Shown: piece by piece, positions 12,348 through 30,605 of the stretch
Layout: every line of letters starts with the position of its first letter
Position numbering within the stretch: the stretch's first letter is position 1
From: an uncultured Verrucomicrobiae bacterium
GTDB taxonomy: Bacteria > Verrucomicrobiota > Verrucomicrobiia > Chthoniobacterales > UBA10450
Assembly: GCA_963803315.1 (NCBI GenBank)
Contig: CAWDLY010000020.1
Coordinates: 136,426 to 200,425, forward strand
Reading direction: 5' to 3'
DNA length: 64,000 bases
Notes under the pieces: generated by a model
Database searches by the model: none
What the model was told of the DNA's origin: nothing
Seen by the model: the letters and a program-made list of their open reading frames with translations, nothing else
Program-made: the position numbers and the translations under genes

Positions 12348-12602
12348 TTATCCGATTTTTTTCCGAAAGCGCAAGTGCGCAGACACAGAAAAGCAAAATC
12401 GAGATGCCGATAAGGATGACAAGGTGCTGCCAGTATTCGAATAAGTGTGCGCCGCGCAGGATTATTGCACGCATGAGCGAGATGAAATAGGTGGCGGGCA
12501 AGATTGTGCTCAGGGCGTAGAAAATCGGTGGCATGGTTTCGCGCGGGAATACGAAGCCGGAAAAGAAAACGCTTGGCAACATGAAGACCATCGACATTTG
12601 CA
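12348..12602 (-). pseudogene. Orphan 3' fragment (last ~85 codons) of an ABC-2 permease
   Basis: Encodes LQMSMVFMLPSVFFSGFVFPRETMPPIFYALSTILPATYFISLMRAIILRGAHLFEYWQHLVILIGISILLFCVCAL, identical in protein to the end of the 29481-30605 gene. About 18 nt substitutions are all synonymous. A 1-nt indel lies just before the stop. Confidence 0.85.
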
Positions 12603-12653: not shown

Positions 12654-13412
12654 TTACCTGCGCTGCACGTTTATTCTCCAGGTATTGTGGTATTCAAAGA
12701 AGCCACCAAAGGCGGGTTGCGTGTTGATTGCGTCGAGCTTGAGCGTATGCATCCCGGGCGAAAGGGGCCCGTGGACGATGCTGATTCCCTCGAACCAGAT
12801 GATGGCGTCGATCGGCGGGAAATTGACCGGAATCCACGGGCTAAAGACGAACCCGGAGTAGAAGTTCATTACGTTTCCTCGACTGATTACGGTCGCGCCA
12901 TCAATCTTGAAGGTTATGTGCAACGTTCGGAAAACACTCCGGGGAACACGCGGGTCCGCTGGCGTCCCATCGGTGTAATGCGTCCCGAGTAGGACCCAAA
13001 GCGGGAGGACGAAGGCTTGTCCTTTGTAGAGAGTTACGTCGAGATGGCCGGGCGTGCCGTCTCCTGGAGCGTCCGGAAGCGGCATGAGCACAACCCCGGG
13101 AGGAACAACGGCGTTGCCGTTGAGATCAGTCGGAACAGTGATGGCGCCAAAGGCCCAACATTCATAGAGTGCGTTCCAAGCCGCGAGCGTTCGGCCGAGG
13201 AAGAGACAACGTTCGCGCGATTCGCCAAGGTTGTCCGTATTTGCGATGTCGCCTTCAAACGTGACCGCATCCGGCGCGGTGATAAGGATGCCTGGTAATG
13301 CCTGGCCCAAAGCCGACCCGACCAGGCAGGCGAGAAAGGCAGCGAGAAGCAGCCGTGTGTTCGTCTTAAGGCAAAGGATTCGAAACAAGCCGTTTGATTT
13401 ATTGGTATTCAT
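12654..13412 (-). CDS. Secreted hypothetical protein (leader MNTNKSNGLFRILCLKTNTRLLLAAFLACLVGSALGQA)
   Basis: ORF 12654-13541. ATG 13412 is preferred because the neighbouring gene starts with a homologous MNTN leader. No family was recognised. Confidence 0.6.
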   Translation of the reverse strand: MNTNKSNGLFRILCLKTNTRLLLAAFLACLVGSALGQALPGILITAPDAVTFEGDIANTDNLGESRERCLFLGRTLAAWNALYECWAFGAITVPTDLNGNAVVPPGVVLMPLPDAPGDGTPGHLDVTLYKGQAFVLPLWVLLGTHYTDGTPADPRVPRSVFRTLHITFKIDGATVISRGNVMNFYSGFVFSPWIPVNFPPIDAIIWFEGISIVHGPLSPGMHTLKLDAINTQPAFGGFFEYHNTWRINVQRR

Positions 13413-13429
13413 ATTTTGGTTTTCCATTT

Positions 13430-13487
13430 TTGAGTTGGAGCAGTGATCGCTTTCCCTTTCCAACGGTGTGTCGAAGTGGCCGCTACA
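13430..13487 (-). promoter_or_regulatory. Conserved upstream motif L, copy L1 (candidate ECF-type promoter)
   Basis: On the minus strand: TGTAGCGGCCACTTCGACACACCGTTGGAAAGGGAAAGCGATCACTG. It ends ~20 nt before ATG 13412 and shares its core with L2-L5. Confidence 0.5.
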
Positions 13488-13660
13488 AAAGAATTGTAAG
13501 TTTCCTTTCAAGTCACTTCGCGGAATGAGCAGTTCCTTCAATCACAACACGCGAGTGAATCTCGCACGGCTGGTTCGCGTATGATGCGCCGTTTCAGCGC
13601 CGAGCTGCAAACTAGTGTCGCGAAAGTGAAAAAGGGGGACAGGAAGTAACTGTCCTTATT

Positions 13661-13682
13661 TCATGTTCCGTACGGAACATGA
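13661..13682. promoter_or_regulatory. Operator-like perfect palindrome P1 (TCATGTTCCGTACGGAACATGA)
   Basis: The 16-bp core TGTTCCGTACGGAACA lies at 13664-13679. It is one of five copies in the window. Confidence 0.6.
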
Positions 13683-13730
13683 ATCTTATTACTTCTTTCC
13701 TTGGCGCTTCTAGCGCCAGACAGAAATAAC

Positions 13731-13763
13731 GATGCCTCACGATGTTCGACACCGTGAGGCATC
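13731..13763 (-). terminator. Hairpin terminator after the 13785-14388 gene
   Basis: GATGCCTCACG...CGTGAGGCATC stem, followed on the minus strand by GTTATTTCTG. Confidence 0.5.
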
Positions 13764-13784
13764 TGAGTTATCGCCGGACGACTG

Positions 13785-14388
13785 TTACAGCCCTGGCGGC
13801 TGGAATATCACGTGAATGAGCCCGTTGAACGAACCTTCGCTGCGGCCGGTGAGACCGTCTGGTGCAAAGGTGAGTAGCCGATTTACAGTGAAGCTCCCGG
13901 CCGCGCCGGTATAATAACCAGTGCCACCGGTGACGGTGTGAAACTCGATTATTGATTTCACTGTCGCATTCCCGGTGTCACTCATTTGCCCTGTCGTGGT
14001 CGTATAGATACTATCTCCGTTAGCGTCGATGAAACGCGCGCACTGCGGACTCGCTCCGGTCGCGTAGTCGACCAGACCTGCGTAGACGACGCGGAACCGG
14101 CCTAACGGGCTTGCATCGGCGTTACCACCCGCCGCCACAACCAGAATGTATGGATTGATTGCCGACTGCTGGGCGGCGTCGAGCGATTTGGCAGATTGTG
14201 GATAATACTGATAGCTCTCCGCTGCAATCAGGCTTCCCCTGAAACGGATTACGCCTATGGGCAGCGAGTCCGCCCAGGCCGAGCCCACCAGGCAGACCAG
14301 CAAGGAGGCAAGAAGCAACCGCGTCTTCGCTTTGCGAGCAAGAGACGCGGAGCGATTGAAACGAAACGTTTGTTTGATTGGTATTCAT
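13785..14388 (-). pseudogene. Secreted hypothetical protein, leader out of frame with mature part
   Basis: ATG 14388 gives MNTNQTNVSFQSLRVS... The mature frame (LLLASLLVCLVGSAWADS..., ORF 13785-14318) is offset by 1 nt near 14320-14335. Alternatively the TTG at 14318 is the start. Confidence 0.5.
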
Positions 14389-14407
14389 ATATTTTTCTTT
14401 CTGTTTT

Positions 14408-14468
14408 GAGGTTTGAGCGATTGACTCGCTTTCCCTTTCCAACGGCGTTCCGCAGCCGGCGCTACACA
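14408..14468 (-). promoter_or_regulatory. Conserved upstream motif L, copy L2
   Basis: On the minus strand: TGTGTAGCGCCGGCTGCGGAACGCCGTTGGAAAGGGAAAGCGAGTCAATCGCTCAAACC. It ends ~20 nt before ATG 14388. Confidence 0.5.
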
Positions 14469-14512
14469 AAGGTAGTGTTCGCTGATTGTTAGCGGCGCGT
14501 GGCTTCGTCGTT

Positions 14513-14587
14513 GTAGCCGGGATCGGTGATCCCGGGAGTGAGTCCGGCGCCTCTTCCGGAGCGGCCGGGGTCACCGACCCCGGCTAC
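14513..14587. repeat. REPIN-like doublet (GTAGCCGGGATCGGTGATCCCGG ... CCGGGGTCACCGACCCCGGCTAC)
   Basis: Inverted REP-like units with GTAG/CTAC ends in the divergent spacer. Confidence 0.65.
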
Positions 14588-14697
14588 AACTGCGCTCCGC
14601 ACAGAGAAACAACTGGCAATTCACCAACACTACCCTGCGCAGACATTGATTTTTTTTCACGCTTGCCTTCCCGATTGCCTCGCAGCACCCTAACGAA

Positions 14698-15471
14698 GTG
14701 AGTTCCCTGCCGGGCGCTGTCCGTGGCGGGAGCGATGATCCCTTCGCTCCCACCCATTGGAGCGTAATCGCCGCGGCATCGAGAAATGAAATCGAGCCGG
14801 AGCAAGCCCGCGCCGCGCTCGGGCAGCTTTGCGAAGTGTATTGGGCGCCCCTTTACGCGTTCGTCCGCAGTCGCGGCCATTCCGTGCACGATGCGCAGGA
14901 CCTCACGCAAAGTTTTTTCGCTCACCTGATCGAACGCGAAATATATGGCCGGGCTGATCGCGCCAAGGGCCGGTTCCGCTCCTTCCTGCTCGCTGCTTTG
15001 AAAAACTTTCTGGCCGACGCCTATGCGTACGCGCACGCGCTGAAGCGCGGTGGTGCGGAGGATTTTTTACCTCTCGATGAGAGTCGGGCCGAGGCGGCGG
15101 AATCGCTTTTCCAGACGCATTCGAAAACCGGTGAGCCGATCGGAGAAGATCGGCTTTTTGAGAAAAGCTGGGCAGATGCGCTCGTTGCCACCAGTCTGGC
15201 GCGGCTTTTAGCAGAGTATCAAAGCGAAGACAAACAGACGCTCTTTGAGCGATTAAAGATTTTTTTGACCGGAAGCCCGGACCCGCTGCCCAGCTACGAT
15301 CAGCTTTCCATTGAAATGGAAATGCCGGCTTCCAGCATACGCACATACGTTACGCGCTTGCGCCAGCGTTACCGCGAAACTTTGCGCGCTGAGGTCCGCC
15401 AAACAGTCGAGACCGAGGCGGAAGTAGATGAGGAATTGCACGAGCTGTTTCGCGTGCTGTCCGCAACGTGA
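14698..15471 (+). CDS. ECF-type sigma-70 factor of the Ser/Thr-kinase-linked type (ECF43-like)
   Basis: 257 aa with an N-terminal PFAPTHWSVI motif, sigma-2-like LCEVYWAPLYAFVRSRGHSVHDAQDLTQSFF, and sigma-4-like SYDQLSIEMEMPASSIRTYVTRLRQRY. Its stop overlaps the kinase GTG (GTGA). Confidence 0.75.
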   Translation: MSSLPGAVRGGSDDPFAPTHWSVIAAASRNEIEPEQARAALGQLCEVYWAPLYAFVRSRGHSVHDAQDLTQSFFAHLIEREIYGRADRAKGRFRSFLLAALKNFLADAYAYAHALKRGGAEDFLPLDESRAEAAESLFQTHSKTGEPIGEDRLFEKSWADALVATSLARLLAEYQSEDKQTLFERLKIFLTGSPDPLPSYDQLSIEMEMPASSIRTYVTRLRQRYRETLRAEVRQTVETEAEVDEELHELFRVLSAT

Positions 15472-18295
15472 AAGTCCTAACCGTGAAAACGCTCGCTCCC
15501 CGCATCGCGCTTTGTTCGACATGCGGCAGGATGTTGAATGAGAAAGGCGAGTGCATGTCCTGCCTTGTTCGGTTGGGGTTTGATCAGCCGTTACCGGAAT
15601 TGTCTTCCGCAGTCTTCGGCGATTTCGAAATCGTGCGGCGCGAAGATGGCTTATTTTGGGAACTCGGACGCGGCGCGATGGGTGTGACTTATCGCGCCCA
15701 GGACAAGGTGTTGAATCGCACCGTCGCGTTAAAAGTGATCGACCCACCGGCAACAGAAGGCGGCGGGCAGGCGGTGCGGGATCGTTTCTTGCGCGAGGCT
15801 CGCGCCGCGGCGGCCTTTCGCCATCCAAATGTGGCAGGTGTGTTTCACTTCGGCGCCTCGAGCGAAGGCGATCGTTGCTACTATGCCATGGAGCTGGTCG
15901 AGGGCGAAACTCTCGAAGCACTCGTTAGGCGTGATGGTCCGTTAGAAGTCAAAGTCGCGCTCGAAATGACAGTTCAAGTCACGCGCGCGTTAATCGCAGC
16001 GGCAGCGCATGGACTCATCCATCGCGACCTTAAGCCGGGTAACATCATGTTGATCCGAAGCGACGCTTCAGAGCTTGAGGTTAAAGTGATCGATTTCGGT
16101 TTAGCCAAAGCGATTGCGGATGGTGGAAAAGAAATGGACTTGACCAAGGGCGGCTTCATCGGCACGCCTGCTTTCGCCAGCCCCGAGCAATTCAGCGGCG
16201 CAGCCGCCGATGCGCGCTCCGATATCTACTCGTTAGGCGTGACGCTTTGGTATGCGCTCACGGGCGAGGTGCCGTATCAGGGAAAAACTATTGAAGAGAT
16301 TCGCCATCGTCAGAGCGATCTCCCACTGCCAGTACAAAATTTGGTCGCGCGCAAAATCCCGACTCCCGTTATTCAGCTACTGCGTCGAATTCTCGCCGTG
16401 GATCCAACCCAACGACCAGCATCGGCTCGGGATTTTATGGAAGCCCTGGATTCGTGCCGCTCACGTTTGGGGCTTATTCCTTTGCCAAGATCGAAAGTGC
16501 GACAAGCCGTCCGCATGGACTTGCAGCCCTTGCCGCTGCGGTGGCGGTCGGCGCCGTAGGTTTTTTTGCTTTCCGGCCATCGCAGCAGAAACCAACGCCC
16601 GCTATAGCAGCCACCGCGCAAGTAGCACTGCCGCCGGTAGTCATACCTAGGAAGTCGATCGCGGTTCTGCCATTCGAAAATCTTAGCGCGGAGAAGGAGA
16701 ACGCTTTCTTCGCGGATGGAGTGCAAGACGACATCCTTACGGCGTTGTCGAAAATCGCCGACCTCAAAGTCATCAGCCGGACCTCTGTGATCAGTTATCG
16801 CGCAGGGGCCGCGCGCAACTTGCGCGCGATCGCTCAAGAATTGGGTGTCGCCAATATTTTGGAAGGCAGTGTTCGCCGCGCCGGAGGCAAAGTCCGGGTA
16901 ACAACCCAACTGATCAATGCGCAGACCGACGCTCATTTGTGGGCCGATACTTACGATCGGAGTTTGGAAGATGTCTTCGCGATTCAAAGCGACATCGCAT
17001 TACAAGTCGCGGCGCAACTGCAGGCGAAGCTCTCGCCCAGCATCAAGTCCGCCATTGAGGAGCGTCCCACCAGCGATTCGATCGCATATGAGTTTTACAC
17101 GCGGGCTAAATTACTCCGGCAACAACCGATGACGGCGCCAGCTGAACAGTTGGAGGCGATAGCATTGCTTGACCAGGCGGTGAGGCGAGACCCGCAGTTT
17201 CACCTTGCCTATTGCGCATTGGTGTCGTTGCACACGCTGTAATACGCGTACTTTGAACATGTGCCGGCACGACGCGCTTTGGCGGAGCGCGCTCTCGAGG
17301 CGGCAGTCCGTTTGCGGCCGGACGCGGCCGAAACTCATCTTGCTCGAGCGGATTACTATTATCGCTGCGACTTTAATTACGACAAAGCCAGGGCAGAACT
17401 CGCGCTGGCCCAGCGGGAACTTTCTGGCGAACCGCGCTTTTTCATCACCGCAGCCCGGATGGACCGATGTCAAGGCCGCTGGCAGGACGAACCTCGCAAT
17501 TGGGAGAAAGCGCTCGAACTCGATCCTCGGAACATGCAGAGCTATAAGCAGCTCTACGAATCTTACCGGGAGGTGCGGCGCTATCCAGAAGCCGCCGCGG
17601 CTCTGCAGCGCGCAGCGGCCATCGATCCGGCCGCGCCGTGGCCGCGGATATTACGCGGCGACCTCGAACTTCAGTGGCGGGCCAACACCAAGCCTTTGCA
17701 TGAGATTTTCGACGAGTTGATAAAGAAAGATCCAGAGAATATTTGGACCGAAGTGTGGTTCGACCTTGCCCTCTGCGAGCGTGATCCAGATGCGGCTGCC
17801 AGAGCCGCGGCTGAACTGGAGTGCGACCTACGATGGTGTGTGGCTCCGCGAGGGGTGGTTTAAGGGTTTAGCCGCGCGCATCCGCGGCGACGAGACGGCG
17901 GCAAGAATGGCGTTCACCGCGGCTCGTGTGGCAGCCGAAAAGGAGGTAACCGAGCAGCCAGATTACGGTCCTCCATTGTGCGCGCTCGGCCTTATCGACG
18001 CCGCTCTCGGACGGAAAGACGAGCGATCCGGGAAGGTCGGCGCGCCGCAGGAACTTCTCCCGGTAACCAAAAATGCTATCGCCGGCGCAATATATCCAAG
18101 ACATTCCTCGCCCTGATCTACGTCTTCTGCGGGGAGAAGGACCTTGCGATTGAACAACTGCAAACTTCGATGAAATCCTACAACGCCATGTTGTCCTACG
18201 GGGAACTCCGCCTGCATCCGTTCTGGGATCCGTTGCGCGGCGATCCGCGTTTTGAGAAACTCGTCGCCAGCCTTGCGCCCAAGCCGGGTGAGTAA
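15468..18295 (+). pseudogene. Membrane Ser/Thr protein kinase with periplasmic TPR domain (copy 1), at least 4 disruptions
   Basis: Order of parts: Cys4-like N-terminus (CSTCG..CMSC), Hanks kinase (HRDLKPGNIML, DFGLAK, GTPAFASPEQ), a TM segment, then KSIAVLPFENLS... and TPRs. The gene is split over ORFs 15468-16559, 16454-17242, 17261-17863, 17766-18116 and 17978-18295. Confidence 0.75.
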
Positions 18296-18318
18296 GTGCC
18301 CAACCACTACAGCCGCGA

Positions 18319-21216
18319 TCAGAATTTCTTCGTTAGGCTAAAGTAAATAAACCGCCCGGTGGGGTCGTAGAGGTACCTGTGGATAATCATTCACGCTATC
18401 GGGCGGGTCGTGGTCGAACAGATTGGTACAACCAACCGAAACGCGCATGCCATCGAGGATTTGCTTCCAACCCGGGCGGGCGTGGCTACCGCTGATGGAG
18501 GTGAAGTCGTAGGCTGCTTGCAGGTCAAAAAACCAGGTTTGCTTCACCCAGTGTTCTCGGCCGTTAAGGCCGAATTCGTGAAAACCGTCACGATAATTCG
18601 ACTGTGGCGGACAACTCGAAGTCCCGCCAACTCCAATCAAGGCGGGATGTTCCTTTCCATTTTAAATAGGCGTCTTCAGAAAAGAAAACGGTTGGGCTGG
18701 GGCTGCTGCGCAGCTCTTTTTCCTTTTCCCCGGGGACGGAGGAGAATTGAAAGGAATCCAGGAAGGCTCACTTGCGTGACGGAGGTGAAAGTTCCGAAGG
18801 ACGTCTGGAGCTGATACTGGAGGGCGAAATCAACGCCGCGGGCTTTTTGTGTCCCGCTGTTTTGATAGGACTCTGACATCGCCAGAAGGTTTCCGTTGGC
18901 ATCTCTCGTGGCGCTCTCGCCCGGCAGTGGATTTCCGGCCGCAACGCGCGCAAGAACATCTTCCGGATCTGGATTCGGGTTAATCCATCCGGTGGTTTCG
19001 ATGTCGAAAAGATCTACGGTCAGGGTGAGCCCCGGAATGAATTTTGGCGTGTAAACGAACCCTCCGCTGAAAGAACGGGAATCCTCCGGTTGCAGGTTAG
19101 GGTTATTGAGAAACGTCGTTGGAACTTCACTAACCTCTGCGCCCGTGACCGGATCTCTCACGTCCTGGAAGAATAGAACGAGCTCCTTGCTGTGCCGAGG
19201 TTTACCAGTGAAGGTTGTTTGAAACCTTCGCCCCAGGTCGCGCGGAAAGTGAGCGAATCGTCGAACGGCTGCCAGCGCATTCCAAACTTTGGCACCATCA
19301 CATTGCTGCCGTTGTTGAGAAATTCTTCGTAGCGGACCGCGGCGGTAAATTCCAGCGCATGAAACCCGGGTGCGGTGCAGCCGGAGCCGAAAACCGGGAT
19401 ACTCGTTTCGGCATAAGCGGCGTACTCGCTTCGGCTTGCGCGCACAGGGAAAAAGATGCCGGTGCCGAGAAGATCCCCGGCATTTTGCAGGACAGTTGTT
19501 TCCTGGCTGTTCGTCTCGTGTTGAAATTGTCCGCCGAAAGCGAGGCCGACGCCGCCCGCGGGCAATTTGAACAGTTCCGTCGTGTAGATGTTGACGTCGA
19601 CCGTCGTCGCACTACCGCGGTCCGGTTCGCGCTCGTGCAGAAGCACGTAGTCAATAAGCCGGTAATTCGATGCGATCGGTCTGCGATAATCGCCGAATGG
19701 ATTGTAAGGAGTGGTTGTGCCGATGTATTCCGGGGAGCTCGGATCAAAGATCGGATCGGCCGCATTGAGCGTGCGATTGAAACGCGATGGCAGAAGGACC
19801 ATTCCAAATGGTGGTGCTAAGAATGTGGCTGTAACGAAATGCGGCGTCGTAACCCCACGTGCCGTCAAAGAGTTTATCTCCTTTGATTCCGGCGGTGGTG
19901 AAAAATGCATCGACCTTGGTGTCAAACTTCGCGATTTCCCAATTCAAAGGTGCGTCCTCTGCTTCCGCCGGAGATTATTTGTTGAAAGGGATTGAAGGGA
20001 TTGTAAGCGCCGGGAGATACACCAGTTTCCTCATAGGTCGGACCTCCGAGCACCGCCCCGGGCGCATGTGGTGGAATCGCGATGAGCGGAAGCCCTGGCG
20101 ATTGAAAATCGTTAGTATTGGAAGGAGCCAATTCGTTGTGCGTATTGACACGTTGATACAGGAAGTCGGCGTAAATCACCATCTGGTTATCGAAGACTCC
20201 GTGATGCGCGTTTAAGTAGGCGCCGTAACGCTCGGAGTCCGGCAGGGCGCTGGTGAAAATCAACGGCGGGAATAGGACACTGCGTCCTTCCGAATAGGTA
20301 TAGGCCGAGGCCGGAGCAGAACCATTACTGAGAAATGGCGCGTGCCCAAAGAAGGTATCGCCCGACCCTGGAGGTGGATTGCCTCCAGCTGCGATCACTG
20401 CTGCGCGCGACAAGCTCCAGATTAAACGGACTGGCATTCGAACTGAGAATGGTTCGAGGTGTCTGGGTCGCCGAATACGATCGGTCACTGTTGAAAATAG
20501 AGTTCCTGCGGTAGTAATTAAGGACGCCGGTGACATTGGTATTTTCACTGCCGAGTCCGAAGACGAGCGAAGAAGCGAACTCAGTTGAATCTTTGTTCGT
20601 CGTATTTCCAGCCTCGATATTCACTTCTGCATCCGTGTAATTGTGGCGCAACTTAATGTTGATCACGCCGGCCACGGCATCGGCGCCATAGGTGGTCGAA
20701 GCACCGTCTTTCAGGATCTCGATGCTTTCGATTGCGGCTTTCGGAATCGAATTCAAGTCGATGAACAACTGCGAGCCATCGGCCGTCCCACCCGGAAAAG
20801 GCGTTACACGATGTCCATCAATCAAAACAAGTGTCGCTCCCGGATCGAAACCCCGCAACGAGATTGACGAAGCACCCAGCGCGAGAGGACTAGACGCATT
20901 ATTGTTCGCGATCGCGACGCCATTGGCGTTCGCGATCGGCAGATTCTTGATCAACTCCTCGCCGGTGCGTTCTCCGGAGGCGTCGATCACTGTGCGAGTG
21001 ATAACCTGCACCGGGTTCGGCCCCACTTCCGCCGCCGTTGGAATAAGAGAGCCAGTGACCATCACGCGCTCAGCCTCCGCAGTCTTCGAAGCTTCGCTAG
21101 CCGATTCGTCGCCCGGGGTTGGCGTTGCCTGCTGTGCGCTAATCGTCGCGCCTAACGACAGGACAGATCGTTGTCGTGAATGCAAGAGCACAACTCTTGC
21201 GGATTAGATTTTTCAA
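18319..21216 (-). pseudogene. TonB-dependent receptor (copy 1), at least 5-6 frame changes
   Basis: TTG 21216 gives MKNLIRKSCALAFTTTI. This is followed by a plug domain (ISLRGFDPGATLVLIDG, IEILKDGASTTYGADAVAGVINI), barrel fragments in ORFs 20325-21191, 19922-20548, 19158-19925, 18676-19161 and 18338-18640, and a terminal FIYFSLTKKF followed by a stop in yet another frame. Confidence 0.75.
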
Positions 21217-21448
21217 GGTGGGGTCCTTTCATCGCTTGCAAAGCCGTGCGAAAGAAAGCGACCGTGAGCTTGGGGCCAACCCTGCGATCTATTGCCGACG
21301 TTGAGTAACGCTACCTTGGCGGATGCCTCAAACCGATTGCAAGCATCAAATTCGGTAAACATAGACAAGCGAGTTCACACCGCTTTCTTTTAAGAGTTGA
21401 AGCGATGATCGCTCGCCGTTTCCAACGGCATTCGAGAACGAGCGCTAC
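21217..21448 (-). promoter_or_regulatory. Receptor leader including motif L3 (core 21385-21448)
   Basis: Minus-strand TGTAGCGCTCGTTCTCGAATGCCGTTGGAAACGGCGAGCGATCATCGCTTCAACTC plus ~170 nt up to the TTG. It is almost identical to 27555-27786. Confidence 0.55.
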
Positions 21449-21505
21449 ACAAATTGCGATTTTTCTGCGCTTGCCTTTGCGATTGCTTCGCACCAACCTA
21501 ACGAA

Positions 21506-21635
21506 GTGAGTTCCCTGCCGGGCGCGGACGTGGCCGGAGCGATGATCCCTTCGCTCCCACCCATTGGAGCGTGATCGCCGCGTCATCGAGAAATGAAATT
21601 AAGCCGGAGCTGTTCGCGTGCTGTCCGGTACCTGA
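21506..21635 (+). pseudogene. Remnant of the ECF sigma gene (internal ~690-nt deletion)
   Basis: The first ~30 codons (SSLPGA...PFAPTHWSVIAA..RNEI) are fused directly to the last codons (LFACCP..). The junction lies at the shared CCGGAGC microhomology. Compare 14698-15471. Confidence 0.75.
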
Positions 21636-21701
21636 AAGTCCTAACCGTGAAAACGCTCGCTCCCCGCATCGCGCTCTGTTCGACATGCGGCAGGATATTG
21701 A

Positions 21702-24462
21702 ATGACGAAAGGCGAGTGCATGTCCTGCCTCGTTCGGCTGGGGTTCGATCAACCCCTGCCGGAACTGGCTTCAGCTGTCTTTGGCGATTTCGAAATCTGC
21801 CAGCGCGAGGATGGCTTTCTTTGGGAACTTGGACGTGGCGCGATGGGTGTGACTTATCGCGCTCAGGACAAGGTGTTGAATCGCAGCGTCGCATTGAAAG
21901 TGATCGACGCACCGGCGACAGAAGGCGGCGGCCAGGCCGTGCGGGATCGCTTTTTGCGCGAGGCGCGCGCCGCTGCGGCTTTCCGTCATCCGAATGTAGC
22001 AGGTGTGTTTCACTTCGGCGCTTCAACCGAAGGCGATCGTTGCTACTATGCGATGGAGCTGGTCGAAGGTGAGACTCTGGAGGCACTCGTTAGGCGCGAC
22101 GGTCCGTTGCAAGTCAAAGCGGCGCTCGAGATGACGGTTCAAGTGACGCGCGCCTTAATTGCCGCCGCGGGGCACGGTTTGATCCATCGCGATCTCAAGC
22201 CGGGTAACATCATGTTAATCCGCAGCGACGCTTCCGAGCTTGAGGTTAAAGTGATCGATTTCGGTTTAGCCAAAGCGATCGCGGATGGTGGAAAAGAAAT
22301 CGACCTGACCAGGGGTGGCTTTATCGGCACGCCTGCTTTCGCCAGCCCCGAGCAGTTCAGCGGCGCAGCGGCCGATGCCCGCTCCGATATCTACTCGTTA
22401 GGCGTGACGCTTTGGTACGCGCTCACGGGCGAGGTTCCCTATCAGGGAAAAACCATCGAAGAGATTCGCCATTGTCAGAGCGATCTCCCACTGCCGGTGC
22501 AAAATTTGGTCGCGCGCAAAATCCCGACTTCCGTCATTCAGCTATTGCGCCGCATTCTCGCAGTTGATCCAACTCAGCGGCCAGCGTCAGCTCGGGAATT
22601 TATGGAAGCCCTTGAGTCATGCCGCTCACGTTTGGGATTCATTCCTTACCAAGAGATCGAAAGCGCAACAAACCTTTCGCATGCTCGCGGCCCTCGCCGC
22701 GGCAGTCGCGGTCGGCGCTGTGGGGTATTTCGCTTTCCGGCCGTTGCAACAGAAACAAACGCCGGCTATTGCAGGCACCACGCAAGGAGCATTGGCGCCG
22801 GTGGTCATACCGATGAAATCGATCGCGGTTCTGCCATTTGAAAATCTCAGTGCCGAAAAGGAGAACGCATTTTTCGCGGATGGAATGCAGGACGACATCC
22901 TCACGGCGTTATCGAAAATCGCCGACTTAAAAGTCATCAGCCGTACCTCCACGATCAGCTATCGCGCGGGGGCCGCCCGCAACTTGCGCGCGATCGCGCA
23001 AGAATTGGGCGTCGCTAATATTTTGGAAGGCAGTGTACGTCGCGCGGGAGGCAAAGTCCGGGTAACAACGCAACTGATTAATGCGCAGACCGACGCTCAC
23101 CTATGGGCCGATACTTACGATCGCAGTTTGGACGATGTCTTCGCGATTCAAAGCGACATCGCGTTACAAGTCGCGGCCCAACTTCAGGCGAAGCTCTCGC
23201 CCAGCGTCAAATTCGCCATTGAGGAGCGTCCCACCCGCGATTCGACAGCATACGAGTTTTACACCCGGGCTAAACTTCTCCGGCAAAAGCCGCTCACGTG
23301 GTCCGAGGATCAGTTGGAGGCGATAGCATTGCTGGACATGGCGGTGAAGCGAGACCCGGAGTTTCACCTTGCCTACTGCACGTTGGTGTCGCTACACGCG
23401 ATCTTATACGCAAACTGGGAACATGTGCCGGCACGGCGCGCTTTGGCGGAGCGTGCCCTTGAGGCAGCAGTCCGTTTGCGGCCGCGTGCGGCCGAGACTC
23501 ATCTCGCTCGAGCGGATTACTATTGTCGCTGCGAGTTTGATTACGACAAAGCCCGGGCAGAACTTGCCTTGGCCCAGCGGGAACTTTCTGGCGAACCGCG
23601 GTTTTTCATCACCGCAGCCAAAATAGACGGATTTCAAGGCCGTTCAGAGGACGAACCTCGCAATTGGGAGAAGGCACTCGAACTCGACCCCCGCAACATG
23701 CAGAGCTACAAGCAGCTCTTCGAATCTTACCGTCACGTGCGGCGCTATTCAGAAGCCGCCGCGGCTCTGCAACGAGCAGCGACTATCGATCCGACCTCGG
23801 TGTGGCCGCGGATATTACGCGGTGAACTCGAACTGCAGTGGCGGGCCAAGACCAAGCCTTTGCATGAGATTTGCGACGAGTTGATGAAAGATCCAGAGAT
23901 CGCCGCTAGTTGGGCCCATGTGTGGTTCGGCCTTGCCTTCTGCGAGCGTGATCCAGATGCGGCTGCCAAGGCGGCGGCGGTGGTTGAAGAACTGACTTAC
24001 GACGGGGTGATAGTTCCGAAGGCGTGGTTTGCTGGTTTATCTGCATCGAGCCGAAACGACCAAATCACGGCAAAGAAAGCGTTCATGTCAGCTCGCGCTG
24101 AAGCGGAAAAAACATTAGCGGAGCAGCCTGAAGAAGGAACGGCGTGGTGTGCGCTTGGCCTCATCGACGCCGCTTTGGGACGGAAAGACCGAGCGATTCA
24201 TGAAGGTCGCCGGGCTGTGGAACTTCTCCCCGTAACCAAGAATGCTGATACCGGTGGGATTATCCAGGATTTCCTTGCCCTGATCTACGTCTTCTGCGGG
24301 GAGAAGGACCTTGCGATCGAACAACTGAAGACTTCGATGAAATCCTACAACGGCATGTGGTCCTACGGAGAACTCCGCCTGCAGCCGTATTGGGATCCGT
24401 TGCGCGGTGATCCGCGTTTTGAGAAATTCGTCGCCAGTCTTGCGCCGAAACCGGGCGAGTGA
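21702..24462 (+). pseudogene. Membrane Ser/Thr protein kinase with periplasmic TPR domain (copy 2), 1-2 frameshifts
   Basis: The kinase domain is ~95% identical to copy 1. ORFs 21702-22841 and 22564-24462 join near 22682-22690. The ancestral GTG start and Cys4 N-terminus are lost (extra C near 21700, and GTG changed to CTG at 21632). Confidence 0.7.
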
Positions 24463-24534
24463 GCGTTGATCACCGTGACCCTGATCAGAGTTTGTCAACC
24501 GGACTCTTCGATTAAAAGAGGTTCAAACGAAACT

Positions 24535-27500
24535 CTAAAATTTCTTCGTTAGGCTGACATAGACGAAGCGGCCAACGGCGTCGTAAATGAAACCCGGATA
24601 GCCCGTCGAGTTACCGAAGCCCCCGAAAGCTATTGGGTTATCCTGGCCAAATACATTGTTGCAACCAACCGTGATGCTAGTGTTGTTCACCAGGTTCTTC
24701 CAGCACGGCATTGAGTAATTGGCCGTTTGTGAGTGGCTTCGCGACGATCCTTACTGTCCTTAGAGTATCCTGCCACTGGCTGTGACTCCACCGGAGGCGC
24801 GAAAGCGAAGTTGTAGGTTCCCTGCACATCAAAGGTCCAGGTGGCCTTGATCCAATGCTCCTTCTTTTTGTCAGGCAAAAAGTCCGCATCGAAGAGAATT
24901 TCGTGGAAACCACTGATGTAGTTCACGCTCGCGAAGATATCGAAGTTGTTCCAAGTCCAGTCGAGCGACGATCTGCCCTTCCATTTCAGATAACCATCGT
25001 CGGCGGTCGAAGATGAGAAACCCGTCCCTATTCCCGATATTTGTCCGACCGGAGTGCCGCTGACTTCGATCGTTGGATTGCCGGCAGTCAGCTGTAGTCT
25101 GAAGGAATCCAGATATGTCGCCTGCGTCAGCGAAGTAAATGTGCCGAAGGGCGATTGGTATTGATATTGGATTCCAAAATCGACACCACGTGCGCGCGCC
25201 TGGGCGGCGTTTTGGAAGGTAAAGCCGATGAGTGAGATGTTGCCGGCGACGTCACGCTCGACGAACTCACCAGGAAGGAGAGTGCCAGCAGCCTCACGAG
25301 CGAGCACCTGATTGGCATCTGGCGTCGCCACGACACCTGTGCGTTCGATGCTCCAGAGATCGAGCGAGAGAGTCAAACCCGGCACGAATTTGGGCGTAAA
25401 GACCACGCCTGAGCTGAATGAGTGCGAGTCCTCTGGTTGGAGATTCGGATTGCTCGAAAACAGGATATTTGTTTCTGATTCGAAATTTCCCGTGAGAGGA
25501 TCGGTCGTAGGCGTAAGTGCCAGCGGTGGCGCCCGAAAATAGCTCAAAGAGCGACGGTTCGCGGAAGCCTTTACCCCATGTCGCGCGGATGGTTAACGAG
25601 TCGTCAAAGGGCTGCCAGCGCATACCCAGTTTCGGCACCAAAACATTCGTGTCGTTGTTGCGAAACTCTTCGTAGCGGCCCGCCGCATTAAATTCCAAGG
25701 CGCGGAAGCCAGGAATCGCGTTTTCCGGGCTGAAAATCGGAATGGACGTCTCCGCATAGAACGCAAACGTTTTGCGGCCGCCGATCCGTACCGAAGAGGC
25801 CCACGTCGATGATCGATTGATCCACGCTCTGCTCGATGTTTTCACGGCGGAACTGTCCGCCGACGGCAAACCCAACACCGCCCGCCCGGAAGTTTAAACA
25901 GCTGGGTGGTGTAGATGGTCGCGTCGAGGGTTGCCAATTTAGAGGAATCGATCTCCTTGGGATGCCCGAGAACGAAATCCACGAGCGCGGCATTGGAAGG
26001 GATGTCAACCCGATAATCGCCAAATGGATTGTAGGCAGCCGCTCCTTCGAGAACTCCGCCCGGTCCAAAGATCGGGTCGGCCTGATTCAAAACTTGATTA
26101 TAACGCGGGATGGAAACGATCTGTGCCGTAAAAGTCTCCTTGACTTGACTGTAGCGGAACCCGAAATCGTAACCCCAGTTCCCGTCGAATAGTTTGTCAC
26201 CTCTGGCACCGAGGGTGAAGAGTATTGCATCGGTCTCGTCATTAAATAGTCGGTTGCCGAATTCAGCCGCTCGCAAACGGCTGCCGCCCGAAATAATCTG
26301 CCCAAACGGATTGAATGGGTTGAAGGCATTGGCCGGAACTCCGGTCTCCGCGTGGGTTGGTGTGTCAGGTGGTTCAGCGCCGGGCGCGATCGGTGTATTT
26401 GGGGGAATTGCGATCGCGATAAACCCAGCGGTCTGGAAATCTCCAGTGGCTAGCGGCGCCAGTTCGTTATGGGTCTTTACATTTTGATAAAGCATGTCGG
26501 CATAGAGCACTAATTGTTCGCCACAGATCTTGTGCTCGGCGTTCACGTATCCGCCCCACCGTTCCGATTCCGGAAACGAGCTCGAGAAGGCGTTAAAGTT
26601 AAAGAACGAAGTACGCCCGAGCTCGAATAGACATAGTCCGAGGCCGGGCTAAAGCCATTCGTGAAGAACGGCGCATGACCAAAGAATACGGGAAGCGGCA
26701 CACCATTGGCGTCCACAGGGAGAGTCGCCGGATCGACTCCCGCTGCGATGACTACGTCCCTGCTTAACTGCAAATTTGCCGGACTTGAGTTCGTGCTAAG
26801 GAATGGCGGCTTGGAGGAAAGCCCACCACGGTCACGGTTAAAGATCGAGTTGTGATGATAATAGTTAATGACACCGCTGACCTGCGTCGTCTCATCGCCG
26901 ATACCAAACAGGAGGTCGGCCGTGTAAAGGCCACCATCCTTGTCGAGTGTATTGCCATAAGATAGTGTCGCCTCCGCTCCACGGTAATTGTGGCGGAGCT
27001 TGAGGTTGACGACACCAGCAACCGCGTCTGCACCGTAGGTGCTCGAAGCGCCATCCTTCAGAATTTCAATGGAGTCGATCGCCGCCCGTGGGATCGAATT
27101 CAAATCCACGAAGGATGTTGTGCCACCGTTTCCAATCGGATACGGGGCAACACGCCTGCCGTCGACCAAAGTGAGGGTGGCACTGGCATCGAAACCGCGC
27201 AGCGAAACCGAAGAAGCGCCCGAAGTAAAGCCGGTCGCGTTATTCGAAACAGGAACACCATTGGCATTCGCCACCGGGAGATTGCGGATGAGTTCTTCGG
27301 CGTTGCGCTCACCGCGCTTGTTGATCAAATCGCGATTGATGGTCAAAATCGGGTTCGGCCCCACTTCTTCCGCCGTTGGAATGTTGGAACCGGTTACAAT
27401 GACGCGCTGAGCTTCCGCAGTCTCCGAAGCTTCGATTGCCGATTGGTCGCTCGGAGTTGGTGCTGCCTGCTGTGCACTAGTCGTCGTGCCTAACGACAGA

Positions 27501-27554
27501 ACGATCGTCGTAGTGAATGCAAGAGTACAGACCCTTGCGGATTAGATTTTTCAA
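24535..27554 (-). pseudogene. TonB-dependent receptor (copy 2), at least 5 frame changes
   Basis: TTG 27554 gives MKNLIRK. The plug and barrel lie in ORFs 26543-27364, 25842-26546, 25294-25878 and 24687-25547. The C-terminus ...GRFVYVSLTKKF followed by a stop is in another frame. About two-thirds identical to copy 1 by eye. Confidence 0.75.
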
Positions 27555-27786
27555 GGTGGGGTCCTTTCATCGCTTGCAAAGCCGTGCGAAAGAAAGCGAC
27601 CGTGAGCTTGGGGCCAACCCTGCGATCTATTGCCGACGTTGAGTAACGCTACCTTCGCGGATGCCTGAAACCGATTGCAAGCATCAAATTCGGTAAACAT
27701 AGGCAAGCGAGGTCACATCGCTTTCTTCGAAAGTTGAGGCGACGATTGCTCGCCGTTTCCAACGGCATTCCGGATCGGGCGCTACA
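27555..27786 (-). promoter_or_regulatory. Receptor leader including motif L4 (core 27723-27786)
   Basis: The first ~125 nt upstream of the TTG are identical to copy 1. The core is GTAGCGCCCGATCCGGAATGCCGTTGGAAACGGCGAGCAATCGTCGCCTCAAC. Confidence 0.55.
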
Positions 27787-27854
27787 AGAAATCCGTTGGA
27801 ATCAGAATTATCCAAACGGATTGCATCCCCGAGTGCGCTCTTCGCTAATCATGC

Positions 27855-27870
27855 TGTTCCGTACGGAACA
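27855..27870. promoter_or_regulatory. Operator-like palindrome P2 (TGTTCCGTACGGAACA)
   Basis: Perfect 16-bp palindrome ~70 nt upstream of motif L4. Confidence 0.6.
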
Positions 27871-27894
27871 CAATTTTTGAGGCTGGATTGGCCG

Positions 27895-28024
27895 GATGCC
27901 TCAACTCGGTTGCAAACATCAAATTGCGTAAACATACCCGAGCAAAGTCACGCCGCCTTCCTTCAAAAGCTTGAAGCAACCGATCACTCGCGGTTTCCAA
28001 TGGCATTCCAGAACGAGCGCTACA
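27895..28024 (-). promoter_or_regulatory. Orphan third copy of the leader with motif L5 (core 27961-28024)
   Basis: GTAGCGCTCGTTCTGGAATGCCATTGGAAACCGCGAGTGATCGGTTGCTTCAAGC plus a diverged leader start. No gene follows it before L4. Confidence 0.5.
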
Positions 28025-28086
28025 AGAAATCGTTGGAATTATCCAAGCAGATGTATCCGCGAGCACAGCTTTACGCTTAAATATGC

Positions 28087-28102
28087 TGTTCCGTACGGAA
28101 CA
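28087..28102. promoter_or_regulatory. Operator-like palindrome P3 (TGTTCCGTACGGAACA)
   Basis: Lies 50 nt upstream of the PaaX-like start (28152) and ~65 nt upstream of motif L5, in a divergent control region. Confidence 0.6.
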
Positions 28103-28151
28103 CAGTTTTAGACTGGACATTGTGATCGCGGTTTGTCTTGGCTGGCAGGAT

Positions 28152-28922
28152 ATGAACTCCAAAACCGAAGAATTTCTTTATCTGTTGCTCTGGGGAGCCG
28201 AGACCTTAATGCATCCCACCTTCCGCAATTTGCATGAGTCGTATGAAGGGTGGGCCTACCGCACAGGCCTGCTGCCGCAACTTGCAAGACTTGAACGACG
28301 CAAGCTGATCGAGAAAAAGCCGGGAAAGATGGCTCAGCGCATCTATCGCCTCACCGAAACCGGCCGTCTCACCGCCCTGGCGGGTCGCGATCCTGAGGCC
28401 CGCTGGAGCCGTTCCTGGGACGGGCGATGGCGACTCGTTGTATTCGATTTGCCTGAAAGACAGAATGCCGCACGCGTGCGACTCCGGCGTTTCCTGAAGG
28501 AGCGCAATTTCGGTTACCTTCAGAACAGTCTTTGGATCACGCCGGACCCTTTGGATGATAGAGTGGCGAAACTAGGTGCGGGCGGCAAGGACGTCGAATC
28601 GTTCCTGACTCTGGAGGCCCGGCCCTGCTCGGGAGAGAGCGACCGGGCGATTGTCGCGGGAGCGTGGGATTTCAATAAGATCAATCGGCGTTACGAGGAT
28701 TGTCTCTGCTTGCTGAAAAACCACCCGCCGTTTCATCGAATTGCTGCTGCAGGTACGGACAAGCTTTGGCAATGGGCGCGGCGGGAGCGGGTCCTCTGGC
28801 GCGCGGCTATCCAAAGCGATCCGCTTTTGCCATCGGTGCTTCTGCCGAGAGGCTACCGCGGCAAAGAAGTCTGGCGCAAGCGGAACTCGGTGTTACGAAA
28901 AGCCGGGCAACGGTTTAAGTAA
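28152..28922 (+). CDS. PaaX-family transcriptional regulator
   Basis: N-terminal wHTH (LARLERRKLIEKKPGKMAQRIYRLTETG), then the PaaX signature WDGRWRLVVFDLPERQNAARVRLRRFLKERNFGYLQNSLWITPDP. ATG 28152 is preferred because ATG 28083 lies inside palindrome P3. Confidence 0.75.
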   Translation: MNSKTEEFLYLLLWGAETLMHPTFRNLHESYEGWAYRTGLLPQLARLERRKLIEKKPGKMAQRIYRLTETGRLTALAGRDPEARWSRSWDGRWRLVVFDLPERQNAARVRLRRFLKERNFGYLQNSLWITPDPLDDRVAKLGAGGKDVESFLTLEARPCSGESDRAIVAGAWDFNKINRRYEDCLCLLKNHPPFHRIAAAGTDKLWQWARRERVLWRAAIQSDPLLPSVLLPRGYRGKEVWRKRNSVLRKAGQRFK

Positions 28923-28940
28923 TGTTTCAATATTGTATGC

Positions 28941-28956
28941 TGTTCCGTACGGAACA
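28941..28956. promoter_or_regulatory. Operator-like palindrome P4 (TGTTCCGTACGGAACA)
   Basis: Lies 19 nt after the PaaX-like stop and is followed by A6C5T9. Confidence 0.5.
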
Positions 28957-29255
28957 GTGAAAAAACCCCCTTTTTTTTTAGCGACCGAAGGGTTTTATTC
29001 GGCGGCTAATTCGCGCAAGGCTGGTTGGTTTAGAGAAGCTACCCGGCTCGTTAGGCGAAAATTGTGGTCTAAGTGAAGCGGTCCATGCGAAGCTTGGCGA
29101 AATTTTGCCCGCTCTGCGCCCGGGGCGCATGAGCGCAAAAGGCTCTGAGGCAGGTCGGTGCTCCTTGCCGCTTAGCGCTGTCCTTCTGAGATAAGCTAGC
29201 TAGTGGTTTCACAAATAAAGTTTCTGCAATTCTTCGCTTGTTCTGAAGGCGCGCT

Positions 29256-29285
29256 AAAACGTTGTTCCGTACGGAACAACGTTTT
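29256..29285. promoter_or_regulatory. Operator-like palindrome P5, extended to 30 nt (AAAACGTTGTTCCGTACGGAACAACGTTTT)
   Basis: Perfect 30-nt palindrome containing the same 16-bp core (29263-29278). It could also act as a bidirectional hairpin terminator. Confidence 0.5.
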
Positions 29286-29480
29286 GCACATGCGATAGAG
29301 GGACCCACTCGTTCTTCCCCTTGTAGGCTGGTGGCGCTAATCTGGGGACTTTTGCCGGACATTGGCGCGGGAGAAGTTTGACGTGAGTTGAAAGAACTTC
29401 CCAGTCACACCAATAGGTCACACCGCTTCTTTCAACGTTTGAGAACAATGATCGACCACGAGGAGATTGCCCATCGCGAG

Positions 29481-30605
29481 TCACCCGATCTTTTTTCGGA
29501 ATCGCAGCGCGCAGACGCAGAAAAGCAAAATCGATATGCCGATAAGGATGACGAGGTGCTGCCAGTATTCGAATAAGTGTGCGCCGCGTAAGATGATCGC
29601 GCGCATGAGGGAAATGAAATAGGTCGCAGGCAGAATCGTGCTCAGGGCGTAGAAAATCGGCGGCATGGTTTCGCGCGGGAAGACGAAGCCGGAAAAGAAA
29701 ACGCTCGGCAACATGAAGACCATCGACATTTGCAAGGCCTGCATTTGGTTCTCGGCTTTGGTGGCGACGAGCAGGCCGAGACTGAGCAATGCGAATACGT
29801 AAACGAGCGTCGCGAACATCATCGCGATCACGCTTCCGTTAATCGGCACGCCAAACAGGAATCGCATGATCAGAAACAGGATCACGGCCATCATCATGCC
29901 GATGCAGAGATAGGGAACGAGTTTGCCGAGCATAAGTCCCCAACGGCTGAGTGGACTAACGAGTAATGTCTCGAGCGTTCCTTTCTCGCGTTCGCGCACG
30001 ACGGCCATGGCGGTGGCGAAGGTGGTGCCGATTTGCAGGACGATGCCGATCACGCCCGGGATGTAGAAGTTCGGGCTTTTCATCGCCGGGTTGTAAAGCA
30101 TTTGCGGGCGGATCTCGATCGGCACATCGCGTCTTCCGCTTTCGCGCAGGAGCGTTTCGATCGATTGCGTGAGACCGACGGCAAGCGCGGTGTTGAGCGC
30201 TTGGAGCGCAGTTGTGGAATTCGAACCGTCGATGAGCAATTGCACCTGAGCGGGATTTCCAGCACGCACATCGCGCGTGAAGGTCGGCGGAATCTCGAGT
30301 CCGACATAGGCGCGACCACCGCGAATCGCGCTTGCCAGTTCGTCGATGCTTCGCACTTCGCCGACGACGCGAAATGTTTCGGTGTTCACGAATCGATCGA
30401 TGAACTGCCGGCTCTCGACCGTGCGATCTTCGTTCAGGATCATCATCGCCATGTGTTTCACATCGGTGTCGAGCGCGTAACCGAACGCGATCATTTCCAC
30501 GAGGGGCGGGAAGAACATGAAGAACAACGTCATCGGATCGCGCCAGACGATGATGAATTCCTTGAACAAAATGGCGCTGAGGCCGCGGAAGGGAACGTGT
30601 TTCAT
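29481..30605 (-). CDS. ABC-2 type transporter permease (YbhS/YbhR-like)
   Basis: 374 aa with 6 TM segments and an ABC-2 membrane domain. It lies downstream of the ABC ATPase and the HlyD-like gene. Confidence 0.85.
   Translation of the reverse strand: MKHVPFRGLSAILFKEFIIVWRDPMTLFFMFFPPLVEMIAFGYALDTDVKHMAMMILNEDRTVESRQFIDRFVNTETFRVVGEVRSIDELASAIRGGRAYVGLEIPPTFTRDVRAGNPAQVQLLIDGSNSTTALQALNTALAVGLTQSIETLLRESGRRDVPIEIRPQMLYNPAMKSPNFYIPGVIGIVLQIGTTFATAMAVVREREKGTLETLLVSPLSRWGLMLGKLVPYLCIGMMMAVILFLIMRFLFGVPINGSVIAMMFATLVYVFALLSLGLLVATKAENQMQALQMSMVFMLPSVFFSGFVFPRETMPPIFYALSTILPATYFISLMRAIILRGAHLFEYWQHLVILIGISILLFCVCALRFRKKIG

Follow-up and report, generated by a model that had tools for sequence, protein, structure and literature searches.

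We describe a motif that is repeated five times on the minus strand of a 64,000-nt stretch of DNA from an uncultured Verrucomicrobiae bacterium (the window; positions 136426-200425 of contig C20 in an assembly of 4.08 Mb and 34 contigs), and propose that each copy is probably a promoter recognised by a divergent extracytoplasmic function (ECF)-like sigma factor encoded in the same locus (14698-15471), together with the first ~25 transcribed bases. That the repeat might be a promoter read by the neighbouring ECF-like sigma had been suggested in a preliminary description of this DNA, and the general idea fits the comparative evidence reported here, in that the element accompanies homologues and paralogues of the sigma factor in other genomes and lies before a gene start, running in its direction. 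The register given there, with GGAA(T/C) as the -35 and CGA(T/G)(C/T) as the -10, fails on conservation, on spacing and on the position of start codons, and we arrive at a different one.

Copies of the motif and their distribution

A search of the window with TGTAGCG-N14-CCGTTGGAAA, allowing at most two mismatches, returned five matches, all on the minus strand (13487-13457, 14466-14436, 21449-21419, 27786-27756 and 28024-27994; L1 to L5), against 0.01 expected from 100 shuffles. The five clear copies of the preliminary description are therefore real, with L2 and L3 beginning 1-2 nt away from where it had placed them. A genome-wide search with the motif, the check proposed there, confined it to this locus: L1 to L5 were the only full copies found in 4.08 Mb by pattern and weight-matrix scan, scoring 40-50 bits (L1, 40.5 bits), and both core blocks were intact in five out of five. 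The degenerate sixth copy reported at 29470-29405 turned out not to be a full one, since its best score was -9.8 bits and only the 3' third of the motif and the beginning of the receptor leader could be aligned. The copies are as follows (putative promoter elements and predicted transcription starts are given for each where assigned).

13425..13487, minus strand: L1, putative promoter copy ahead of secreted-protein gene A; -35 TGTAGC at 13487-13482, -10 CCGTT at 13466-13462, predicted start ~13454; block 3 reads AGCGATCACTGCT
14403..14466, minus strand: L2, putative promoter copy ahead of gene B, directed away from the sigma gene; -35 at 14466-14461, -10 at 14445-14441, predicted start ~14433
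21385..21449, minus strand: L3, putative promoter copy ahead of TonB-dependent receptor 1; -35 at 21449-21444, -10 at 21428-21424, predicted start ~21416
27722..27786, minus strand: L4, putative promoter copy ahead of TonB-dependent receptor 2; -35 at 27786-27781, -10 at 27765-27761, predicted start ~27753
27960..28024, minus strand: L5, orphan copy with CCATT as the putative -10, followed by 77 nt of receptor leader and no gene; predicted start ~27991
29405..29455, minus strand: L6, degenerate remnant holding block 3 and the start of the leader, without the two core blocks

The distances to the start codons were close to those first given, about 20 nt to the ATG codons for L1 and L2 and about 170 nt to the TTG codons for L3 and L4. 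The end of L1 is 18 nt from the conserved ATG at 13412 and that of L2 20 nt from the ATG at 14388; for L3 and L4 the corresponding distance, to TTG codons at 21216 and 27554, is 169 nt. A leader of ~200 nt lies between the predicted start of L3 and receptor 1. L5, rightly called an orphan stacked upstream of L4, arose when ~235 nt of the L4 region were duplicated in tandem. Indeed, the five copies do not represent independent events: a 6.3-kb segmental duplication (15449-21458 versus 21613-27795) and this tandem duplication contain L3, L4 and L5, whose flanks are homologous. L1 and L2 precede paralogous genes, and their likeness to L3, L4 and L5 is confined to the motif. L2 also has orthologous copies in three related loci (L026, L027 and L028).

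Beyond this genome, the exact pattern was absent from 60 relatives; the element is too variable for it, and a weight matrix was needed, which we built from the five window copies alone and applied at thresholds of 12 and 18 bits. An element of at least 12 bits was present in 20 of 24 metagenome loci with sigma homologues (56-88% identical), on the strand opposite to the sigma gene and 54-123 nt ahead of its start, and further copies occurred elsewhere in the same loci. At 18 bits or more there were 23 matches in 0.75 Mb of strand in the homologue loci versus three unrelated ones in 8.2 Mb of this genome. A loose regular expression applied genome-wide was not enriched near the sigma paralogues (14 of 198 matches, ~11 expected), so that true sites are separable by matrix scores only. 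Homologues of the sigma factor number in the thousands (over 7,500 matches), and the named loci among them put the organism with Chthoniobacterales / Candidatus Udaeobacter-like Verrucomicrobiota. This genome holds 13 paralogues of the sigma factor, the three closest of which (contigs C22, C11 and C10) are each adjoined by a variant of the motif. The sigma factor was present in 94 of 120 other genomes sampled in the same family, often in several copies, and the motif lay upstream of it in at least 20 of 29 further loci from these 120 genomes.

What follows the motif is nearly always the beginning of a gene. In 39 of 43 instances, the first T of the motif is followed at 41-95 nt by the start of an open reading frame (ORF) of at least 50 codons that runs in the same direction; in three others the ORF opens at 145, 211 and 239 nt. 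Most of the ORFs in the former group begin like a signal peptide. Targets with a Pfam family include a haem peroxidase, vanadium-haloperoxidase-like and di-haem peroxidase-like proteins, a Kelch propeller and a NosD-like beta-helix, and one target in this genome is an intact TonB-dependent receptor of 972 aa. A separate dispersed repeat, TGTAGCGGCGGTCTATGACCGTCGCTCGAA, occurs in at least 12 copies genome-wide (e.g. C20:112879, C20:319355, C10:159261 and C1:124681); the TGTAGCG that it shares with the motif is coincidental, and its matrix matches are weak (12-16 bits).

Anatomy of the motif and its proposed reader

Base conservation was counted over 58 aligned instances, with positions numbered from the first T as 0. 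The conserved positions are:

T0, 57/58; G1, 58/58; A3, 53/58; G4, 57/58; C5, 58/58
A18, 57/58; C21, 58/58; T24, 57/58; T25, 58/58; G26, 49/58; A28, 53/58

Invariant bases are thus confined to A18 and two blocks, TG(C/T)AGC and C(C)(G/C)TT, 15-16 nt apart. In 60 of 63 instances, 13-15 nt separate the end of TGxxGC from CCxTT, which corresponds to 14-16 nt up to the C(G/C)TT core. A hexamer, 15-16 variable bases and C(G/C)TT make up an ECF-type layout, from which we infer that TG(C/T)AGC is the -35 and CCGTT the -10. The -35 would be either TGCAGC or TGTAGC, and contains no AAC. The putative -10 contains CGTT in the clade of the window, where it reads CCGTT in this locus; around half of the family has CCTT or CTTT instead. 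Between them, the spacer would be variable save for a nearly invariant A-A pair three bases before the -10, kept in 47 and 57 of 58 instances. Orthologous promoters, whose sigma factors are 78-88% identical, keep the blocks and differ in the intervening stretch (CCGGTTTCGGAA, CAGCCCGCCGCA and ACGCGCTCCGGCA). Transcription would begin ~7 nt after the -10, inside GGAAAGGG and ~33 nt after the first T, in which case the third block, AAGCGATCATCGCTTCAAC, would form the beginning of the mRNA and may have a role at the mRNA 5' end or in translation. This block is conserved in front of unrelated genes within the window clade, but not family-wide. Within that clade the arms of its palindrome (AGCGA/TCGCT) are retained while the loop varies (TCA, TTA, TCG, ATGA or GTCAA), so that a short 5' hairpin is possible.

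The assignment of the -35 gains from a correspondence between the motif and the sigma factor itself. Where the predicted region 4.2 helix of the sigma factor carries R-S-H (or R-S-D, R-S-N, R-G-E), the third base of TG(C/T)AGC is C (~36 of 36 loci), and where it carries R-T-Y or R-T-R this base is T or G (seven of seven). The link of Ser or Thr to the base holds in two separate clades. Moreover, the loci L006 and L007 have the -10 type of the window, yet combine R-S-H with TGCAGC, which indicates that the first block is tied to region 4.2 rather than to the remainder of the motif. Such a pairing of residue and base is suggestive of TG(C/T)AGC being the -35, but it is not proof.

Two readings based on other sigma factors were rejected. 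For sigma-54 (TGGCAC-N5-TTGC, with GG and GC exactly 10 nt apart), the GC is one base short in TTGGAAAcggcgAGCG and is not conserved in the family, whose invariant bases lie at other positions. The sigma-70 reading TTGGAA-N17-CTTCAA has a poor -10 and a spacing of 17-19 nt that shifts with the length of the loop; a consensus scan of these intergenic regions found no sigma-70-type promoter.

The proposed reader is very divergent. Its match to Pfam Sigma70_r2 (E 3.8e-4, 20.6 bits) lies below the cut-off of 24, that to NCBIfam sigma70-ECF (32 bits) lies below a cut-off of 42.9, no region 4 domain was matched in its sequence by Pfam, and a sequence search of the PDB gave no match. We built a structural model on 52 homologues (predicted local distance difference test score, pLDDT, 66). 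The 12 best fold matches in Foldseek and 19 of the 20 best PDB matches were ECF sigmas, AlgU, SigH and SigW among the top ones, with probabilities of 0.38-0.99 but E-values of 0.03-0.7 and a model pLDDT of 66. Judged by this modelled fold, the protein looks like a sigma factor. Its region 2.2 reads H-D-A-Q-D-L-T-Q, with D65 and D68 nearly invariant or invariant in the 52 homologues. T70 (window 14905-14907), directly after D-A-Q-D-L, is also nearly invariant among them, and is a candidate phospho-acceptor for the kinase encoded by the adjoining gene. The layout of sigma and kinase genes is identical in L026, L027 and L028, and no anti-sigma domain was found in the scanned neighbour genes.

How the sigma factor may itself be expressed is indicated by the interval of 55-120 nt between the motif and the sigma start. 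This interval leaves little space for further elements. Within it, the sigma gene has a TTGC(C/T)T box that is conserved and, in the majority of loci, GATACAA as well, ~8-12 nt before the sigma GTG (window 14600-14697; same place in L006-L028). Such boxes suggest a promoter of the housekeeping type and an mRNA for the sigma factor whose leader is very short or lacking. The motif was not found on the sigma gene's own promoter; it is directed away from the sigma gene, so autoregulation is not indicated. In the mechanism that we propose, the sigma factor would be made constantly from its housekeeping-type promoter and its activity would presumably be set post-translationally, as its own promoter lacks the motif, by the product of the overlapping gene for a transmembrane kinase with TPR domains. 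An envelope signal might be sensed by the periplasmic TPR part of this protein, which would act on the sigma factor, upon which secreted proteins and TonB-dependent receptors would be transcribed. Between L2 and the upstream box of the sigma gene there is also a repetitive extragenic palindrome (REP)-like insertion with inverted ends GTTGTAGCCGGG ... CCCGGCTACAAC (window 14513-14587), which L026, L027 and L028 lack in their orthologous intergenic regions.

Genes of the locus and alternative explanations

The genes around the five copies are listed here in order of position.

12654..13412, minus strand: gene A, secreted protein of 252 aa without a Pfam or NCBIfam family; putative target of L1
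13785..14388, minus strand: gene B, a gene A paralogue whose frame changes once close to its start; putative target of L2
14698..15471, plus strand: divergent ECF-like sigma factor of 257 aa, proposed reader of the motif; its 3' end overlaps the kinase start by 4 nt
15468..18295, plus strand: transmembrane Ser/Thr kinase, copy 1, with periplasmic TolB-N-like and TPR domains; read in several frames
18322..21216, minus strand: TonB-dependent receptor 1 (Plug and barrel), at least seven frame changes relative to an intact paralogue; putative target of L3
21520..21699, plus strand: what remains of a second sigma gene (52% identical to residues 6-69), located before kinase 2
21702..24462, plus strand: transmembrane Ser/Thr kinase-TPR, copy 2, one frame change
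24538..27554, minus strand: TonB-dependent receptor 2, at least four frame changes; putative target of L4
28083..28922, plus strand: PaaX-like regulator gene

Gene B has orthologues at the same position in L026, L027 and L028. Directly 3' of it, a 15-pair hairpin with a T-rich tail (window 13731-13763, minus strand) is a likely terminator between gene B and gene A, and L1 would accordingly need to act as a separate promoter. Both receptor leaders contain a short ORF with an ATG start (MFTEFDACNRF...; 21213-21362 and 27551-27700, minus strand) that ends at the receptor TTG, immediately preceded for receptor 1 by a terminator-like hairpin (21385-21367). Fourteen of its codons are kept in the copy after L5, with three non-synonymous differences, and we rejected the short ORF after L3, L4 and L5 as coding since three such changes in 14 codons provide no coding evidence. 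At the edges of the locus, a 229-nt direct repeat (92% identical; 12374-12602 and 29506-29734) of the 3' end of an ABC-2 permease gene flanks a 17-kb segment. The idea that this segment is an island carrying the sigma module was rejected, because the M28 peptidase, the gene B orthologue, the sigma and the kinase occur in the same order in relatives (L026 and L027), from which at least the sigma module part looks native. Elsewhere in the window there is a tandem array of an 8-nt unit, TTTCCTCG, in ~12 copies (49621-49720).

Among the other explanations for the repeat, the one that survives best, although we think it unlikely, is that the promoter type is real elsewhere while the copies here are relics of a decaying duplicated module, alike through recent duplication alone. 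Frame changes are indeed concentrated in the duplicated module (window 15468-27554), where both receptors are interrupted relative to an intact paralogue on contig C11 of the same assembly and kinase 1 is in about five pieces (~4 frame changes), with kinase 2, as well as gene B, showing one break each. The second sigma copy has been reduced to a remnant, and L5 drives nothing. On the other hand, the sigma gene, gene A and the PaaX-like gene are intact, as are the core blocks of all five copies, and split kinase genes are also found in related contigs from other samples, which points to indel errors of assembly rather than decay. The frame changes reflect either decay or indel errors of long-read assembly.

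An improbable alternative is the register of the preliminary description, an ECF promoter in which the CGA(T/G)(C/T) -10 would follow the GGAA(T/C) -35 by 17-18 nt and TGTAGCG would be an upstream element. GGAAT or GGAAC is the classic core of an ECF -35, the A-A of GGAAT is the pair that is nearly invariant family-wide, and GC(A/G)ATC does lie 17 nt downstream in most instances. Yet GGAA is kept in only five of 13 promoters of the window's sigma clade, being replaced by GACAC in L1 itself, by CGCAC in L027 and by GGCAC in L028 and L022. In ~10 of 39 aligned instances there is no CGAT block, and the distance between GGAAT and this block varies from 16 to 19 nt. Furthermore, two signal-peptide proteins have their start codons 45 and 47 nt after the first T (C11:112286 and L021:9250), upstream of the transcription start that this register implies, and the link of sigma region 4.2 to TGYAGC would be left unexplained.

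Could the motif instead be the site of another DNA-binding protein, the PaaX-like regulator or an unseen activator, in the form ATTCCG-N14-CGGAAT? The family consensus is partly an inverted repeat (helix 1, 78% complementary), a PaaX-like gene is present in the locus, and the conservation exceeds what a promoter needs. However, the motif also occurs in loci that hold only the sigma, the kinase-TPR and the targets, with no PaaX-like gene; the inverted repeat has T opposite G in 14 instances, which is not complementary in DNA, and most window copies are without it. A PaaX-like protein would be better suited by a 16-nt perfect palindrome, TGTTCCGTACGGAACA, whose five copies (13664-13679, 27855-27870, 28087-28102, 28941-28956 and 29263-29278) are found in perfect form nowhere else in the genome. 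Those near L4 and L5 are 63-69 nt upstream of them and the one near L1 is 177 nt upstream; the start of the PaaX-like gene is also covered, and two copies follow this gene. The palindrome is probably the operator of the PaaX-like regulator. We consequently hold it to be quite improbable that the motif is a binding site of this kind.

Least probable of all, and very much so, is that the motif is a transcribed cis-regulatory RNA with its promoter further upstream, an option raised in the preliminary description on account of two small hairpins, GCCGTT-GGA-AACGGC and AGCGA-TCA-TCGCT. Both are present as perfect palindromes in L3, and the retention of the AGCGA/TCGCT arms in the window clade despite loop variation, together with some two-sided changes at pair 37-45 of the first hairpin, would be in keeping with an RNA; but the hairpins are imperfect in other copies, the first (GCCGTT/AACGGC) being disrupted in L1, L2, L5 and the orthologues with no compensatory changes and the second arm pair non-existent in most of the family (AGCAATCATCATTTCG). 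Nor did the suggested analysis of hairpin covariation support RNA structure (70-74% of cells pair versus 67-69% after shuffling). Rfam gave no match at the gathering threshold or at E <= 1, folding energies were like those of shuffled sequences (z -0.9 to +1.2, around 0) with folds that differ among copies, and the ~20-25 nt between the motif and the -35-like box of the sigma gene leave hardly any room for a promoter upstream of the motif.

Several points nevertheless weigh against a promoter read by the ECF-like sigma. The sigma protein is below threshold for Pfam region 2 and its region 4 goes undetected by sequence, while the structural model is moderate (pLDDT 66) and the Foldseek E-values are weak. 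The proposed -35 is without the AAC core typical of ECF promoters, and the ~55 nt conserved in three or four blocks are more than a promoter needs. Since L3, L4 and L5 are recent duplicates, their mutual similarity alone says little, and the link between residue and base goes back to two evolutionary events only. Finally, because the receptors, kinase 1 and gene B are interrupted, some of the promoters here may serve genes that are decaying, unless the frame changes are errors of assembly.

Relation to known systems and significance

The proposed promoters resemble those of group 4 ECF sigmas (SigW, SigE/RpoE, SigH/SigR) in having two short conserved blocks ~16 nt apart, with CGTT contained in the -10 in this locus, and in their location, next to the gene of the sigma factor that would read them and before genes whose products are envelope or secreted proteins. 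They differ in a -35 of TG(C/T)AGC without an AAC core, in the extra nearly invariant A-A upstream of the -10 and in a conserved initial transcribed region; in addition, the sigma operon here lacks the motif, and hence autoregulation.

Sigma factors activated by Ser/Thr kinases have been documented in the ECF43 group, namely EcfP/PknT in Vibrio parahaemolyticus and EcfK/PknS in Xanthomonas citri, where post-translational control by the kinase was shown (PMC8999054, PMC13147305), and planctomycetes have the kinase-linked groups ECF59, 61, 62 and 217 (PMC7826278). The locus described here is similar to both in that the sigma gene is followed by a gene for a Hanks-type transmembrane kinase, with no anti-sigma gene seen, and by analogy its sigma factor would be expected to be constitutive and switched on by the kinase. 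In ECF43 sigmas the acidic DAED/DxxD of region 2.2 is replaced by uncharged residues and a phospho-acceptor Thr (PMC13147305, PMC8999054), whereas the sigma factor studied here keeps the acidic D-x-x-D (DAQDLTQ), so it may be that the mechanism of activation differs. It is also longer (257 aa) and too divergent for Pfam models, and its kinase has a TolB-N-like domain and a TPR ectodomain.

An ECF-like sigma gene beside genes for TonB-dependent receptors that carry its proposed promoter recalls FecI/FecR/FecA. Yet no FecR-like anti-sigma was found in the locus with Pfam, a kinase being in its place, and the receptors show Plug and TonB_dep_Rec_b-barrel only, without an N-terminal signalling (STN) extension. 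Moreover, the targets in most related loci are secreted enzymes and not receptors. The locus is therefore not a FecI/FecR/FecA system. Rather, what we report is a new promoter consensus for an uncharacterised family of kinase-coupled ECF-like sigmas, the general kind of system being already known.

Most of what is known about kinase-linked ECF sigmas comes from gene neighbourhoods, and target promoters have been determined in very few cases; our literature search found none for Verrucomicrobiota. A consensus that holds across the family allows regulons to be predicted from sequence in these abundant uncultured soil bacteria. For the window itself, the promoter reading accounts for the repeat as ordinary regulatory DNA and not as a mobile or RNA element. 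The correspondence of Ser and Thr to C and T provides a testable rule of specificity, and orthogonal pairs of sigma factor and promoter could be of use for engineering.

Going further, and only tentatively, the element may mark a large, undescribed signalling family of soil Verrucomicrobiota, with a promoter in three parts (TGCAGC, A-A and CCNTT), a long ECF-like sigma with an extra middle domain, and a kinase-TPR protein that replaces the anti-sigma factor. Up to 13 copies of such a system might coexist in one genome, the paralogues being kept apart by a code of Ser or Thr in region 4.2 versus base 3 of the -35, and possibly also of a Tyr in region 2 versus base 3 of the -10, and together they would control secreted peroxidases, haloperoxidase-like enzymes and receptors. 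A consensus that holds across the family allows regulons to be predicted from sequence in these abundant uncultured soil bacteria.

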